59,474 nt of DNA from an uncultured Candidatus Saccharibacteria bacterium (GCA_964563615.1 CAZLWF010000005.1:1-59474); one strand, 5' to 3'; positions 9,780-15,227 are shown, counted from the stretch's first letter. The notes: a model not told the origin generated them from the sequence alone. A program made the numbers and translations.

Positions 9780-10538
9780 TTATATTAAATCAAATTCGAG
9801 ATAAAGAGGATTATGATCAGAAACTACATCTGCCAACACTTTGAAATCTCTAACAATTATTTCTGGAGAGCAAAATATGTAATCAGCAAATTTAAGTGTT
9901 TTTTTATAGAGTTCTGTGCGGGTTGAAATTATATTATATTCTTTTATAAGATTTTTTAAACCTATATCTTCAAGCATTTGCATACTTTGAGTGTTCGGTA
10001 AAAGATTGAAATCACCTACTATAATCTGAGGACCATCAAAAGATTCTATTAAATCAACTACTATCTTTGATTGATTAAGTCTTTTTTCACTATCACTCTT
10101 CCCTTCCGGTCGATGAGTGAAGTGTGTATTCATTATCCTTAGTCTGCTGCCTTTCACTAGTAAATCAAACCATTGCAATTTCCTATCATGATCTCTATTT
10201 TCTACATCATTAGATTCTTCCCAATTTCCTTTAGCAATGAGAATATCTCCTTTTTCTAAAACTTCAATTTTTTTATTTATATATGTTGCAATACCATAAC
10301 GCTCCTCTAGTACATCACAAAATTCATAATTATGATTTTCTAAAGAATTTCTAATTTGTTCAAAAAGATCATGTTTTACTTCCCGACCTGAAACCTGAAC
10401 AAATGCTTGAGAATTTTGGTTCTGCTTATAAATTTCTTGAAAACAAAAGATGTCTATCTCATTTTTTCTACTTTCGATAAAGTTCTTTAGTCCAGGCCAG
10501 ACTCTTCCACCCCATGCATTAAGTGTAATAAGTTTCAT
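9780..10538 (-). CDS. Endonuclease/exonuclease/phosphatase (EEP) family protein
   Basis: LITLN, FCFQE, NTHF, GDFN, DYIF and SDHNP motifs. The ATG overlaps the ileS TGA (TGATG). Confidence 0.9.
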   Translation of the reverse strand: MKLITLNAWGGRVWPGLKNFIESRKNEIDIFCFQEIYKQNQNSQAFVQVSGREVKHDLFEQIRNSLENHNYEFCDVLEERYGIATYINKKIEVLEKGDILIAKGNWEESNDVENRDHDRKLQWFDLLVKGSRLRIMNTHFTHRPEGKSDSEKRLNQSKIVVDLIESFDGPQIIVGDFNLLPNTQSMQMLEDIGLKNLIKEYNIISTRTELYKKTLKFADYIFCSPEIIVRDFKVLADVVSDHNPLYLEFDLI

Positions 10539-13500
10539 CACTCTATGTTAATCGAAATAATAATTTCTCCAATATTTACTTCTTGCCCATTATTATCTGC
10601 AAACGTCACTTCTTTTGCCAAGACTGTCTTCTTAAAATCATTCATAAACGGCGTGACGAGTGATTCTGCTCCAGGTGAAATACTGAGAGATATGACATCA
10701 CTAGGAGTTAATCCTGCTTGCTTACGCATGTCTTGCACAGCTCGGACAAATTCTCGATACTCGCCTTCGAGCTTAAGCTCCGGTGTAATACGCTCATCAA
10801 AAACAATCACTGGACCTTTTTCAACAGCTTTGACATTGAGCTCATCTTTGATGAGTTCTTTGTAGTAATCACTTAGGTCTTCGGTGACGAAGAAAAATGC
10901 AAGTGGCTGGCGCACAGGGATATTAGCTTTCTTCCTGAGTGCATTTCCGACCGTGCACAAATCCCGAACAACCTGCATATTTTCTATTAACTGTTTACTA
11001 TTCACTATTGACTGTGTTCCTGGCCAATCACTTAGATGCACACTTTCTACATCTGCCTCATGTCGTAATCGTTGCCATATATCTTCCGCAGCAAATGGTG
11101 CAAATGGCGCCATCACTTGGGCGAGAATTTTTAATACTGTATACAATGTTTGCTTTGCATCAGTATCACCATCTTTGATGCGGTCTCTCGAACGACGTAG
11201 ATACCATGTCGAAAGATCACCAATAAAGTCTCGAATTGCCCGTACAGGTTCAAGGGCTTTGTATGCATCGAGCTTCTCGGTTGTGAGGACGATGACTTGA
11301 TCAAGCCGAGCCAGTACCCATTGATCAAGAATGTTTTTACTTTCGACTTTCGACGTATCACTTTCGACTATTGTATCCCTATACAACTCATAGAACGATA
11401 AAATATTATACAAGAGCCCAAATACTTGACGTTGAAGTTCGCCAACTGTCCGTTCATCGAAATTCTTGGACTCACCCGGCTGGTTGACTGAGTACATCCA
11501 CAAACGAAGCGTATCGACGCCGTATTTCTCAATCATCGTCCAGGGGTCAACAACATTCCCGATTGATTTAGACATTTTCTTGCCGTCTTTATCGAGAATA
11601 TGTCCGAGACAAATAACATTCTTGTACGCCAAACCACGATCCATGAGCACACCAACAGCGAGGAGTGTATAGAACCAGCCTCGTGTTTGATCGATCGCTT
11701 CAGAAATAAAGTCTGCTGGGTACCCTGGACCTTCGACAAAATCTTTATTCTCAAATGGATAATGATCCTGTGCGAACGGCATAGCACCTGAGTCAAACCA
11801 GACATCCATGACTTCTTTTACCCGACGGAATTCCTTGCCATCTCGCTCCAGTACGATTTCATCAATAAATGGACGATGCGGATCAAGCTCATAATTTACA
11901 TTATGCGGCAGTGGCACAAATGGAAGTTCCCTAACTTCTGCATTATTTAAATATTTAAATTCCTTTTTGTCCGTAACAAGATCGAGTGATCGATCTGGAT
12001 CTAAACCTTGCGCACCTGCAACCAAAAGCCATGATGGACCACCATGCGTCACCAGAAGAATATTTTTATTTTGATATTTTGATTCCAGCTCATACAAGAG
12101 ATCCATTGATCGCTTTTTTACATCCATATACGATTCCCCATCTGGATACGCAAATGAGAAATTCTCTGCATTTTTCGGAAGCGTCGTATGATATTCTATC
12201 CAGGTCTTGAAACCAGCATTACCAACTTTGAATTCGCGAAGTCGATCATCAATTATGATACTTTCTTTTGGGAGATCAAGAATCTCACGAATGATTTCTG
12301 TTGTTTCTTCTGTACGAACGAATGGTGAAGCAATGATAAGCTCAATATTTTGCTTTTTTAATTCTTCCGCGCTCACTCGCACCTGTTCTCTACCCTTCTC
12401 TGTGAGATGATCCGGCGCATCTACAATCTCGCTAATAAATCCACCTAGGTTGTGCTCTGCTTCCCCGTGTCGCATCACGAAATACGTATTACCTGACTTT
12501 TTCGTATATTTCTTGAGGGTTTCAAATGAATCGACAACCAATACCTCTCCGTCAGTTGCTACCCAAATCGGTAGTGGTGTTCCCCAGTACCGTTCACGAG
12601 AAATCGCCCAATCTTTCACTTCACGGATCCACTCACCAAAGCGCCCTTCTTTAGTATGATCTGGTTCCCAATTGATCTTATGATTTTCAGCAACAAGCGT
12701 ATCGCGAAGCGTTGACATGCGGATATACCAAGAATCTCGAGCATAATAGATAAGCGCAGTTTTACAACGCCAACAATGTGGATATGAGTGAGTGTATTTT
12801 TCTTTCTTGAAAAGTAATCCTCGATGTGCCAAATCTTTGATAACATCGACTGCTGTCTCTTCATCTTTGACAAATTTCCCTTCGAGGAAATCAGTGCCTT
12901 TGACGAAATGACCTGCCTCATCAACGAGGTGGAATTTAGGTAGTCCTACTTTTGTACCGAGCTCGAAATCTTCTTGCCCATACATGACTGCAGTGTGCAC
13001 AATGCCTGTACCATCAGTCGTGGTCACAAAATCTGCTGGATAGACCTTGTACGCATTTACTAATTTTTCATCACCAGCATCAAGATTTTGAAGATATGGG
13101 TAGAGAGGTTCATATTGCATACCTACCATTTCATTACCCGTATGCTCTGCAATAATTTCATGCGGTTCCGCAATAACAGATAAACGTTCTTTTGCTAACA
13201 CCAAAATTTCATCTCCGACTTTGACTTCTACATACACCACATCTTTACCCACCGCCAAACCAACATTGCCAGGCAGTGTCCATGGGGTCGTTGTCCATGC
13301 AAGAAAATAACCATTGTCTGTTCCGACAATTTTAAACTTTGCAGTTACTGAAAGGTCGGTATCATCTTGATACCCTTGGGCAAGTTCGTGTGACGAAAGC
13401 GCTGTCCCACAACGAGGACACCACGGTACGACTTTGTAGTCTTTGTAGAGCAAGCCTTTGTCATGTACTTTTGAGACAATATTCCAAATTGATTCGATAA

Positions 13501-13969
13501 AATCACTCTTGTAGGTGATGTAGGGATTTTTGTGATCTACCCAATATCCGGATCGATCAGTAAATCGTTCCCATTCATCGATATATTTCCACACACTCTC
13601 ACGGCATTTATCATTGAATGCTGCAATACCGTAGGATTCGATTTCTTTTTTGGATTTCAATCCCAATTCTTTTTCGACTTGGAGTTCTACTGGTAACCCA
13701 TGTGTATCCCAGCCGCCTTTCCTACGCACATGAAATCCTTGCATTGTTTTATACCGTGGAAATGCATCTTTGAAACAACGAGGTTCTAGGTGGTGAATGC
13801 CAGGCTTGCCATTGGCTGTCGGCGGACCATCATAGAAAACAAACTCACCCTTTGGAGATTCTTTCTCAAGAGATTTTTGGAATATAGTATTATCTTTCCA
13901 AAACTGCAAAACTGCTTCTTCACGAAGCGCTGTGTCTGATTTATTATTTTGTTCGTTGTTCTCTAACAT
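10538..13969 (-). CDS. ileS: Isoleucine--tRNA ligase, type 2, with inserted histidine-phosphatase domain
   Basis: FYDGPPTANGKPGIHH, GWDTHGLP, WTTTPWTLP, WAISRERYWG and KMSKS. The RHG...VTHGG domain is inserted before VMDVWFDSG. Confidence 0.95.
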   Translation of the reverse strand: MLENNEQNNKSDTALREEAVLQFWKDNTIFQKSLEKESPKGEFVFYDGPPTANGKPGIHHLEPRCFKDAFPRYKTMQGFHVRRKGGWDTHGLPVELQVEKELGLKSKKEIESYGIAAFNDKCRESVWKYIDEWERFTDRSGYWVDHKNPYITYKSDFIESIWNIVSKVHDKGLLYKDYKVVPWCPRCGTALSSHELAQGYQDDTDLSVTAKFKIVGTDNGYFLAWTTTPWTLPGNVGLAVGKDVVYVEVKVGDEILVLAKERLSVIAEPHEIIAEHTGNEMVGMQYEPLYPYLQNLDAGDEKLVNAYKVYPADFVTTTDGTGIVHTAVMYGQEDFELGTKVGLPKFHLVDEAGHFVKGTDFLEGKFVKDEETAVDVIKDLAHRGLLFKKEKYTHSYPHCWRCKTALIYYARDSWYIRMSTLRDTLVAENHKINWEPDHTKEGRFGEWIREVKDWAISRERYWGTPLPIWVATDGEVLVVDSFETLKKYTKKSGNTYFVMRHGEAEHNLGGFISEIVDAPDHLTEKGREQVRVSAEELKKQNIELIIASPFVRTEETTEIIREILDLPKESIIIDDRLREFKVGNAGFKTWIEYHTTLPKNAENFSFAYPDGESYMDVKKRSMDLLYELESKYQNKNILLVTHGGPSWLLVAGAQGLDPDRSLDLVTDKKEFKYLNNAEVRELPFVPLPHNVNYELDPHRPFIDEIVLERDGKEFRRVKEVMDVWFDSGAMPFAQDHYPFENKDFVEGPGYPADFISEAIDQTRGWFYTLLAVGVLMDRGLAYKNVICLGHILDKDGKKMSKSIGNVVDPWTMIEKYGVDTLRLWMYSVNQPGESKNFDERTVGELQRQVFGLLYNILSFYELYRDTIVESDTSKVESKNILDQWVLARLDQVIVLTTEKLDAYKALEPVRAIRDFIGDLSTWYLRRSRDRIKDGDTDAKQTLYTVLKILAQVMAPFAPFAAEDIWQRLRHEADVESVHLSDWPGTQSIVNSKQLIENMQVVRDLCTVGNALRKKANIPVRQPLAFFFVTEDLSDYYKELIKDELNVKAVEKGPVIVFDERITPELKLEGEYREFVRAVQDMRKQAGLTPSDVISLSISPGAESLVTPFMNDFKKTVLAKEVTFADNNGQEVNIGEIIISINIE

Positions 13970-14015
13970 ATTGACATAAAATTAATATTGTGATAAAATA
14001 TCATAAATAATAAAG

Positions 14016-14207
14016 ATGGAAAATCAAATAATAGTTTTACTTTGGATTTTAATAGGTATTTGCTATACAGGCACAGGATACCTGATAACACTTAAATTAA
14101 TTTCAGATAAGGGCAGACCCAGCCGTATGACACGATTGATTTCAATAATCCTGTGGCCATTTATGGGGCTATTGGCTGTAATTGCTCCCGAATCAACCAA
14201 GCATTAA
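14016..14207 (+). CDS. Small membrane protein, antisense within the ileS leader
   Basis: 63 aa with two hydrophobic segments. It has its own extended -10 (TGATAAAAT, 13991-13999) and its stop sits immediately before the shared hairpin. Confidence 0.65.
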   Translation: MENQIIVLLWILIGICYTGTGYLITLKLISDKGRPSRMTRLISIILWPFMGLLAVIAPESTKH

Positions 14208-14263
14208 AAAAACTCGTCCACGAATCACGATAAACATCATGATTCAAGGACGAGTTTCTTTTT
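14206..14263. terminator. Bidirectional intrinsic terminator (T-box terminator and terminator of 14016-14207)
   Basis: aaactcgtcc...gaatcacgat aaac atcatgattc...ggacgagttt, with T tracts on both strands. Confidence 0.85.
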
Positions 14264-14408
14264 ATATAAGAAATCGTGGTACCACCTTGCTTGCTTCTCA
14301 TTTACTGCTATTACGGGCTTACCCGTCAGGTTCTAGAGTCTTGCGACATTCTTCCTGAAGCTGCCCCCGTTTGGAGGACCAAGAGGTGATTGCCTCTTCA
14401 ATGCTTAT
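14206..14408 (-). promoter_or_regulatory. T-box riboswitch (Ile specifier AUC) upstream of ileS
   Basis: Minus strand: the antiterminator CAAGG-UGGUACC-ACG (14275-14289) pairs with CGU-CCUUG (14245-14252). The AAGAGG/CCUCUU hairpin has loop CAAUCA containing AUC (14388-14390), and there is an alternative terminator hairpin. An extended -10 TGATAGTAT lies at about 14415-14423. Confidence 0.9.
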
Positions 14409-14457
14409 AAAGAAATACTATCACATAGGTAATAAAAGTCTATGTTACAATATTTCC

Positions 14458-14700
14458 ATGGATCTCTCATCACTCGGGCACACTATCCTTCTTACTATCA
14501 CCAATATTCACCATTTAACTATTGGTTTTTGGATTTTAGTTGCCTTGGTTGTTTTTATTTCCTTTATTTTGATCTCCAATTTCCGTTCATACGGCGAGAA
14601 TTATTTAATTGGTTTTATATTCTATGCGCTCTATGGTTTTGGAGTATTTACCTTACTCACTAATATTTACAACCAGCTCCATATTATTGCTTCATTATGA
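14458..14700 (+). CDS. Small membrane protein
   Basis: 80 aa and hydrophobic. Start chosen at MDLSS because TGTTACAAT lies 6 nt upstream; the longer ORF-track start falls inside the T-box. Confidence 0.65.
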   Translation: MDLSSLGHTILLTITNIHHLTIGFWILVALVVFISFILISNFRSYGENYLIGFIFYALYGFGVFTLLTNIYNQLHIIASL

Positions 14701-15227
14701 CGTTACACAAAGATGAAACTAAAATAGCAGTCTACCGCAGACACTGGTTTTATTTTGTCACAGAAACACTCCTCTTTGGATTGCTTGCTGTTTTCCCTCT
14801 TGTTGCAGGCACCATACTGCCGACCTACATACCTTTCGAAATTCCAGCATATCTGTCAGTTTTATTTCATTTCCTTTATACACTCTGGCTTTTATTTGTC
14901 TGGATAACCTTTTTTATTTCCTACACGAATTATATTCTCGACCTTTGGATTTTGACTTCAGAAAGACTCGTCAATGTTGAGCAAATCGGTATATTCTCAC
15001 GTGAGGTTTCAACTTTGCAGATTGAGAAAGTTCAAGACATCACTGTCACACGAAGTGGCCTACTCGATGAACTCTTAGGCACAGGTAGCCTCCTCGTCGA
15101 AAGTGCTGGTGCTGATAAAAAGTTCTTCATGTCAAAAATCGCTAATGCCGAACGCGTCAAAGAGCACATTCTGAAAATCGTAGAAGCTAAAACTCATGAA
15201 GTAAAAACCGTACGAATCGAAAAATAG
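14697..15227 (+). CDS. PH-domain (bPH_2-like) membrane protein
   Basis: Two TM helices, then WILTSERLVNVEQIGIFSREVSTLQIEKVQDITV...GTGSLLVESAG. Confidence 0.75.
   Translation: MTLHKDETKIAVYRRHWFYFVTETLLFGLLAVFPLVAGTILPTYIPFEIPAYLSVLFHFLYTLWLLFVWITFFISYTNYILDLWILTSERLVNVEQIGIFSREVSTLQIEKVQDITVTRSGLLDELLGTGSLLVESAGADKKFFMSKIANAERVKEHILKIVEAKTHEVKTVRIEK

Follow-up and report, generated by a model that had tools for sequence, protein, structure and literature searches.

Can a T-box riboswitch with an ultrashort stem I act through a transcriptional terminator? The question is raised by a compact leader on the minus strand of a 59,474-nt stretch of DNA from an uncultured Candidatus Saccharibacteria bacterium (GCA_964563615.1, CAZLWF010000005.1:1-59474; this whole stretch is referred to below as the window). 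The original prediction read positions 14206-14408 as an Ile T-box in an apparent CPR genome, with a stem I of about 50 nt and a strong intrinsic terminator, and did not recognise this hybrid architecture as described. Class III ileS T-boxes with an ultrashort stem I are known from the Actinobacteria Mycobacterium smegmatis, M. tuberculosis and Nocardia farcinica (Sherwood, Grundy and Henkin 2015, as cited in PMC7583486, PMC10482949 and bioRxiv 10.1101/2023.02.28.530422). In these citing papers the ultrashort class is presented as translational and ileS-only (bioRxiv 10.1101/2023.02.28.530422), classes III and IV are said to ‘mostly’ regulate translation (PMC10482949), and a long stem I platform is generally needed by transcriptional T-boxes (review PMC7583486).

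The bacterium has a tiny genome and belongs to the Patescibacteria (CPR). Our comparisons at the sequence level confirm that the leader of the window is a real Ile T-box, with a class III type aptamer and what appears to be a transcriptional output. We consider it likely, with good though not full confidence, that it senses tRNA-Ile and controls ileS by transcription attenuation.

Architecture of the ileS leader

The leader and the gene that it putatively regulates consist of the following parts.

14409-14206, minus strand: ileS leader RNA (T-box riboswitch), compact
14358-14406, minus strand: stem I, 49 nt, AG bulge and distal platform absent
14406-14403 with 14361-14358, minus strand: basal helix of stem I, AAGC/GCUU
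14397-14382, minus strand: specifier hairpin AGAGG/CCUCU, 5 bp, with the 6-nt apical loop CAAUCA (14392-14387)
14390-14388, minus strand: specifier AUC, with an A directly 3' of the codon, both inside the CAAUCA loop
14377-14364, minus strand: side hairpin CCUCC-AAAC-GGGGG, 3' of the specifier hairpin and before the basal helix
14327-14357, minus strand: stem II, CAGG-AAGAA-UGUC-GCAA-GACU-CUAGAA-CCUG, with the conserved GAAGAA/UAGAA S-turn-like motif; aligns to stem II of RF00230
14325-14314, minus strand: stem IIA hairpin CGGG-UAAG-CCCG
14309-14307, minus strand: AGC, the IIB pseudoknot partner, pairing with GC(C) of the IIA loop
14290-14306, minus strand: purine-rich linker AGUAAAUGAGAAGCAAG, with no stem III hairpin
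14245-14289, minus strand: antiterminator, composed of helix A1, the 7-nt T-box bulge and helix A2
14289-14285 with 14249-14245, minus strand: A1, CAAGG with CCUUG
14284-14278, minus strand: T-box bulge UGGUACC, 7 nt
14277-14250, minus strand: A2, ACGA-UUUCUU...AAGAAA-CUCGU, an extended helix
14206-14258, minus strand: intrinsic terminator, formed by a ~22-bp hairpin that takes the 3' strand of A2 and A1 as its 5' arm and runs into U7 (14212-14206)
10538-13969, minus strand: ileS, encoding a 1143-aa isoleucyl-tRNA synthetase (IleRS); 237 nt from the U tract to the ileS start

All the pieces of stem I named in the original prediction (the AAGC/GCUU base, the AGAGG/CCUCU hairpin with its CAAUCA loop, and the side hairpin) are present, as are CAGG...CCUG of stem II, the IIA-like element and the antiterminator, whose ACG/CGU helix turned out to be part of the longer A2. 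The reading had to be amended in that the 3' GA of the K-turn is missing, stem III is absent, the terminator is common to a convergent ORF, and the leader belongs to a large family and is not a one-off; the rest of it stood. The 5' strand of the K-turn (AUUGA) is intact in the window copy and the 3' strand reads UG instead of GA; after the UG come the side hairpin, then CA, then GCUU, which gives a three-way junction. The motif in stem II would fold into an S-turn.

The A2 helix has a 6-bp A-U extension that is common to the genus, and the antiterminator aligns to RF00230 positions 186-219 with a posterior probability near 1. Folded alone, the antiterminator has an energy of -9.3 kcal/mol and the terminator (with its flanking A and U runs) one of -32.5 kcal/mol; both values lie within the range given by TBDB for transcriptional T-boxes. 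The fold of the whole leader region has z = -4.6 relative to shuffles. A simple terminator scan did not pick up the T-box terminator because of internal mismatches in its stem; RNAfold recovers it.

Identification of the T-box and its match to tRNA and gene

At the gathering threshold, Rfam gave no match anywhere in the whole window. A permissive search with RF00230, the model that the original prediction had proposed to use, produced an end-to-end alignment of 29.5 bits against a gathering cut-off of 93 (E=1.7e-4 in a 1-kb stretch, 2.6e-5 in the whole genome), so the leader is found, but below threshold. The low score is due to the missing distal stem I: 86 model positions are reduced to 34 nt, and all other blocks are in register. 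TBDB uses RF00230 for transcriptional T-boxes and applies its translational model to Actinobacteria only, and its pipeline would therefore miss CPR leaders.

The downstream gene is assigned to IleRS by NCBIfam TIGR00392 (876 bits, cut-off 621) and by Pfam tRNA-synt_1 and Anticodon_1. ARAGORN found no tRNA within the window, and tRNA genes were taken from the whole genome (645 kb, 29 contigs, 86% complete). The tRNA-Ile(GAU) of this genome ends in ...CACACGC-A-CCA, with A73 and an encoded CCA; the UGGU of the bulge thus pairs with A73-C-C-A of the organism's own tRNA-Ile, as had been proposed from the bulge. With ileS downstream and AUC-A in the loop, the assignment to Ile at this position and on this strand is borne out.

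This IleRS carries a complete His_Phos_1 histidine-phosphatase domain (residues 497-663; 11981-12481, minus strand) that splits the tRNA-synt_1 match, and it is closest to the MupA/MupB (type 2) group. Its 80 best relatives align over nearly all 1143 residues, which means that the His_Phos_1 insert is conserved across Nomurabacteria and Paceibacteria.

There are exactly two T-boxes in the genome, in the ileS and aspS leaders; a covariance model built from CPR leaders (see below) matches no others. The second one (contig C4:14749-14880, plus strand; locus L001:1498-1631) precedes an aspS gene of the non-discriminating type. Its K-turn is clean, and its 4-bp stem I ends in the loop UUGACAG (GAC, then A); the leader also has a stem II that is a small hairpin without the GAAGAA/UAGAA motif, IIA, stem III, a UGGCACC bulge and a terminator with a U tract, and the UGGC of the bulge fits G73 of the genome's tRNA-Asp. 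Codon, bulge base, tRNA and gene agree in both leaders of the genome, which leaves little room for chance, and the aspS leader indicates that the ultrashort design is not restricted to ileS.

Conservation and covariation among relatives

RF00230 matches were found in 27 out of 41 related genomes, all of them below the cut-off (none of the 41 genomes reaches the gathering threshold), so that Rfam-based annotation misses the T-box regulons of these genomes. A protein search with IleRS gave as the 80 best loci sequences labelled Candidatus Nomurabacteria, Paceibacteria and other Patescibacteria, and 54 of these 80 have the exact sequence GGUGGUACC upstream of ileS. Nearly all these leaders run from the K-turn through a 4-6 bp stem and a loop NNAUCA to GA-GCUU. 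The K-turn has the full GA/GA motif in most relatives and is degenerate in same-genus relatives, as it is in the window copy.

In an alignment of 43 relatives, the AUC is invariant and the A that follows nearly so, and the two loop bases 5' of the codon vary, leaving AUC as the only conserved triplet. The T-box sequence given above is invariant in the same 43 relatives, as are the U, A and A of UAGA in stem II. Every helix is supported by covariation, which had been suggested as a check: 91.3% of the cells are paired (IIB pseudoknot included) and 18 of 29 pairs are altered on both sides. None of 500 shuffles was as high, and slid controls were 31-51% paired. Compensatory changes are seen in the basal helix of stem I and in the specifier hairpin (four out of five specifier-stem pairs altered on both sides), in all four base pairs of the base helix of stem II, and in IIB, where a GC pair becomes AU in relatives and the third pair occurs as UA, GU, AU and GC.

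The covariance model built from this alignment, and so from CPR leaders only, matches 142 out of 401 sampled Patescibacteria genomes at E <= 1e-4. The leader of the window is its top-scoring match (117 bits) and keeps all 27 invariant columns. A second alignment, of another 100 matches including a few contigs already sampled, is 93.7% paired, with changes on both sides in 24 of 26 pairs (526 such cells), figures that are somewhat favoured by the alignment being fitted to the model. The antiterminator helices covary in both alignments.

The relatives also tell which parts can vary. In 100 relatives, 20-42 nt (median 23) separate the two basal strands of stem I, in keeping with the predicted lack of an AG bulge and T-loop module. 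A foldable but unrelated hairpin stands at the position of the side hairpin in at least 11 of 52 parsed relatives. The stem III insert is missing in 20 of 43 relatives (the rest have a hairpin between GAGAAG and UAAAAAG), and IIA/B, present in the window copy, is missing in 14 of 43; IIA/B is thus not obligatory within the CPR family. Both are missing in about eight of the 43 (e.g. L035, L036, L041 and L075). Without their terminator, the smallest leaders are ~111 nt long, counting from 13 nt 5' of the stem I hairpin through the antiterminator.

Some matches differ in their loop or their label. One relative (L031) has the loop AAAACA (AAC or AAA) and a UGGU bulge upstream of an AspRS/AsnRS-like gene, and the phylum-wide matches include the loops CUAGUCA (GUC, Val) and CCAACA (AAC). 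CPR-type ileS T-boxes also occur in two contigs labelled Pseudomonadales / Gammaproteobacteria (L143 and L185). The CPR model gives L143 114 bits, and its 8-kb stretch has 33% G+C, so this contig appears to be mislabelled or mis-binned; for L185 the score is lower (70.5 bits, 45% G+C) and the case less clear.

Putative promoter, convergent ORF and proposed control of ileS

Four further features bear on how transcription reaches the leader and ileS, or lie next to it.

14415-14442, minus strand: putative leader promoter, found by eye; -35 TAGACT (14442-14437), 16-nt spacer, extended -10 TG-A-TAGTAT (14423-14415)
14458-14700, plus strand: divergent gene for an 80-aa membrane protein, with an ATGA overlap with the next gene
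14697-15227, plus strand: bPH_2 (bacterial PH-domain) gene
14016-14207, plus strand: convergent 63-aa hydrophobic two-helix ORF, between the terminator and ileS and ending at the terminator

The promoter-like site TAGACT-16-TGATAGTAT is directly before stem I. It scores 8/12 plus TG, which is under the scan threshold, and resembles other TG-extended promoter-like sites in the window; relatives have TTGCAA-17-TATTCT at this position. The transcript is predicted to start at about 14409-14407, 1-3 nt 5' of stem I. A longer canonical stem I folding from an upstream start, the case that the original prediction had named against itself, was not found and can be excluded: the divergent gene starts at 14458 and the relatives' promoter stands directly before stem I, and with a promoter-like site there in the window as well no room is left for a longer stem I.

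Within 20 kb, the best promoter-like site (TTGACA-17-TG-TAAAAT, 13971-13999; 11/12 with TG) is the one preceding the 63-aa ORF. No homologue was found in the relatives by tblastn or BLASTP, and the ORF matches no Pfam or NCBIfam family. At the corresponding position, L024, L028, L039, L038 and L050 have small antisense ORFs that are unrelated to it. In two same-genus species the arrangement is that of the window, a T-box, then a small antisense ORF, then ileS, and the gap is ~297 nt. Any transcript that reads through from the T-box into ileS must cross the 63-aa ORF in the antisense direction, and this is the main local uncertainty about the control of ileS from the leader.

It is conceivable that the leader is decoupled from ileS or is a relic. 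The hairpin would then mainly end the 63-aa ORF, a separate promoter shortly 5' of 13969 would drive ileS, and the T-box, no longer in control of ileS, would give rise to nothing more than a short RNA or one antisense to the ORF. The end of the ORF does coincide with the hairpin, whose A-run and U-run flanks on both strands mean that it can serve the convergent ORF too, and the strength of the ORF's promoter-like site points the same way. A promoter-like site (TTGATT-16-TATGAT, 14027-14000) also precedes ileS and could uncouple it from the leader, but this site is weak (9/12) and five such sites against 3.3 expected is chance level. Further evidence against decoupling is that the leader is intact, with its top score and full set of invariant columns; that the order of T-box, antisense ORF and ileS is kept in the two same-genus species, so the arrangement is stable and not decaying; and that the 5' arm of the hairpin is the antiterminator strand in 69/69 relatives, most of which have no such ORF. 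We therefore regard decoupling as unlikely, and argue, from the intact top-scoring leader and an arrangement that is stable across species, that ileS should still be under the control of the leader.

In L061, L070 and L076, the gap between the T-box terminator and ileS holds a sense-strand gene for a membrane protein of 84-86 aa. By eye this protein resembles a SemiSWEET-type transporter (...IQPI..T.NC..WSLYA...), and it would be co-regulated by tRNA-Ile.

Termination or translational control

A terminator hairpin that includes the 3' strand of the antiterminator was found in all of 69 distinct leaders (69/69; median -25.3 kcal/mol, ~48 nt), and the U tract right after the stem has a median of 8 U in 9. 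This tract and ileS are separated by -2 to 380 nt, so Shine-Dalgarno masking cannot be the general mode. No GGAGG-like sequence is present in the hairpin of the window or in the 30 nt upstream of the ileS AUG. The window has 24 terminator-like sites (13.6 +/- 3.3 expected), an enrichment suggesting that the organism uses intrinsic termination. Taken together, the terminators in every leader, the variable spacing, the lack of a GGAGG-like sequence and the enrichment leave attenuation as the only mechanism consistent across the family, and we infer that transcription attenuation is the output of the CPR leaders.

The same check applied to CPR and actinobacterial leaders gave opposite results. 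The terminator is found in 26 out of 28 CPR leaders (of the two exceptions, one has an interrupted U run and the other meets a contig end) but in only two out of 45 from Actinobacteria; in the other 43 the Shine-Dalgarno sequence by the AUG is sequestered in a helix. Two low-GC leaders, L171 (Nanopelagicaceae) and L222 (Actinomycetota MAG), have the Shine-Dalgarno sequence within the hairpin, then a U-rich tract, and the start codon almost at once, a platform that could act on transcription and translation alike.

If the switch, like those of Actinobacteria, acted post-transcriptionally (on translation or on RNA stability), the hairpin and U tract would be incidental features of an AT-rich genome. 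The aptamer class is described as mostly translational (PMC10482949), and dual-looking platforms do exist, as in L171 and L222, where a Shine-Dalgarno hairpin is followed by U7. In the window, however, 237 nt separate the hairpin from the ileS AUG, and no sequence that could be masked in this way is present in the hairpin or in the region before the AUG; and across the relatives the spacing drifts over hundreds of nucleotides while the U tract stays constant. We hold this reading to be improbable, more so than decoupling, and attenuation remains the preferred one. Chance resemblance in an RNA that binds no tRNA, to which the distance from the Rfam cut-off could be taken to point, can be dismissed as very improbable, given that the low score comes from one large deletion with the remaining blocks aligned, that the structure covaries across relatives, and that codon, discriminator base and downstream gene are concordant in two separate leaders of the genome.

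Comparison with known T-box classes

An exact pattern derived from CPR leaders retrieved CPR and actinobacterial leaders alike, the latter from Corynebacterium, Propionibacteriaceae, Kribbella, Jiangella and others. The CPR-only covariance model likewise matches 39 actinobacterial-labelled leaders at full length (positions 1-141) with 45-67 bits. Judged by pattern and model, the CPR and actinobacterial aptamers form a single family, which corresponds to class III as defined in PMC10482949. They share a short stem I that lacks the elbow-binding platform, a hexanucleotide apical loop in which an A comes after the AUC, the GAAGAA/UAGAA motif of stem II, the IIA/B pseudoknot, the UGGUACC bulge and the gene, ileS. 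They differ in their output: the window and the CPR leaders have an intrinsic terminator, the actinobacterial ones a sequestrator of the Shine-Dalgarno sequence adjoining the AUG. The window copy further departs from class III in having no stem III, a degenerate K-turn with a side hairpin, and 237 nt between it and the gene. In addition, the CPR design also serves Asp, and apparently Val and Asn, whereas the ultrashort class has been described as ileS-only.

With class I (the Bacillus subtilis tyrS type, RF00230) the leader has in common the competition between terminator and antiterminator, the UGGN-NCCA pairing, stem II and IIA/B, and an aminoacyl-tRNA synthetase gene under transcription attenuation. 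Unlike class I, it has no long stem I, specifier internal loop, AG bulge or distal loop (the 86 deleted positions). A likeness to class IV is seen in L004, L009, L052, L057, L070 and L104, which have a small hairpin 5' of the codon and the specifier at a junction; in the window, by contrast, the codon keeps its place in the apical loop, and the extra hairpin comes 3' of it, with stem I on one side and the basal helix on the other.

In the literature searched, papers naming CPR lineages made no mention of T-box riboswitches, and an ultrashort stem I combined with a terminator was not described (primary papers of 2008, 2015 and 2019 may note a few such leaders). Within this literature, the hybrid can still be called undescribed.

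Proposed mechanism

Control of ileS by attenuation would proceed as follows. Transcription would start a few bases 5' of stem I, whose apical loop would offer AUC-A to the GAU anticodon of tRNA-Ile. On the model of the ileS structures solved for Nocardia and Mycobacterium, the S-turn purines of stem II would dock on the codon-anticodon helix and the IIA/B pseudoknot would set the geometry. With uncharged tRNA, A73-C-C-A would pair with UGGU and stabilise the weak antiterminator (-9 kcal/mol), allowing RNA polymerase to read through, across the antisense ORF, the 237 nt into ileS. With charged tRNA, the 3' strand of the antiterminator would join the 22-bp terminator, and the transcript would end at U7 (14212-14206); the charge of the tRNA would have to be sensed without stem III. 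Counted against the attenuation reading are the lack of a platform, the lack of stem III and the degenerate K-turn, in which the 3' GA is replaced by UG and the side hairpin.

Implications

According to the rule that the field works by, a transcriptional T-box depends on the long stem I platform for quick capture of the tRNA, and T-boxes with an ultrashort stem I and no platform are translational, ileS-specific and actinobacterial. The CPR family pairs an ultrashort aptamer with a terminator. It may well be (we see the case as evenly balanced) that CPR carry a minimal class III aptamer with a terminator as a widespread T-box type, the only architecture in the inspected leaders, which is reused for Ile, Asp and apparently Val/Asn, and in which the platform is absent in all of these leaders, stem III in about half and IIA/B in about a third, with the K-turn degenerate in the genus. 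If so, the smallest natural tRNA-sensing transcriptional switch would be ~110 nt plus a terminator, and such very small tRNA-responsive switches may be of use in engineering. If the leaders also act co-transcriptionally, the platform, stem III and the K-turn would not be required for kinetic T-box control. Because stem III, the pseudoknot or the K-turn has been lost lineage by lineage, the CPR family would provide a ready-made deletion series for co-transcriptional tRNA sensing.
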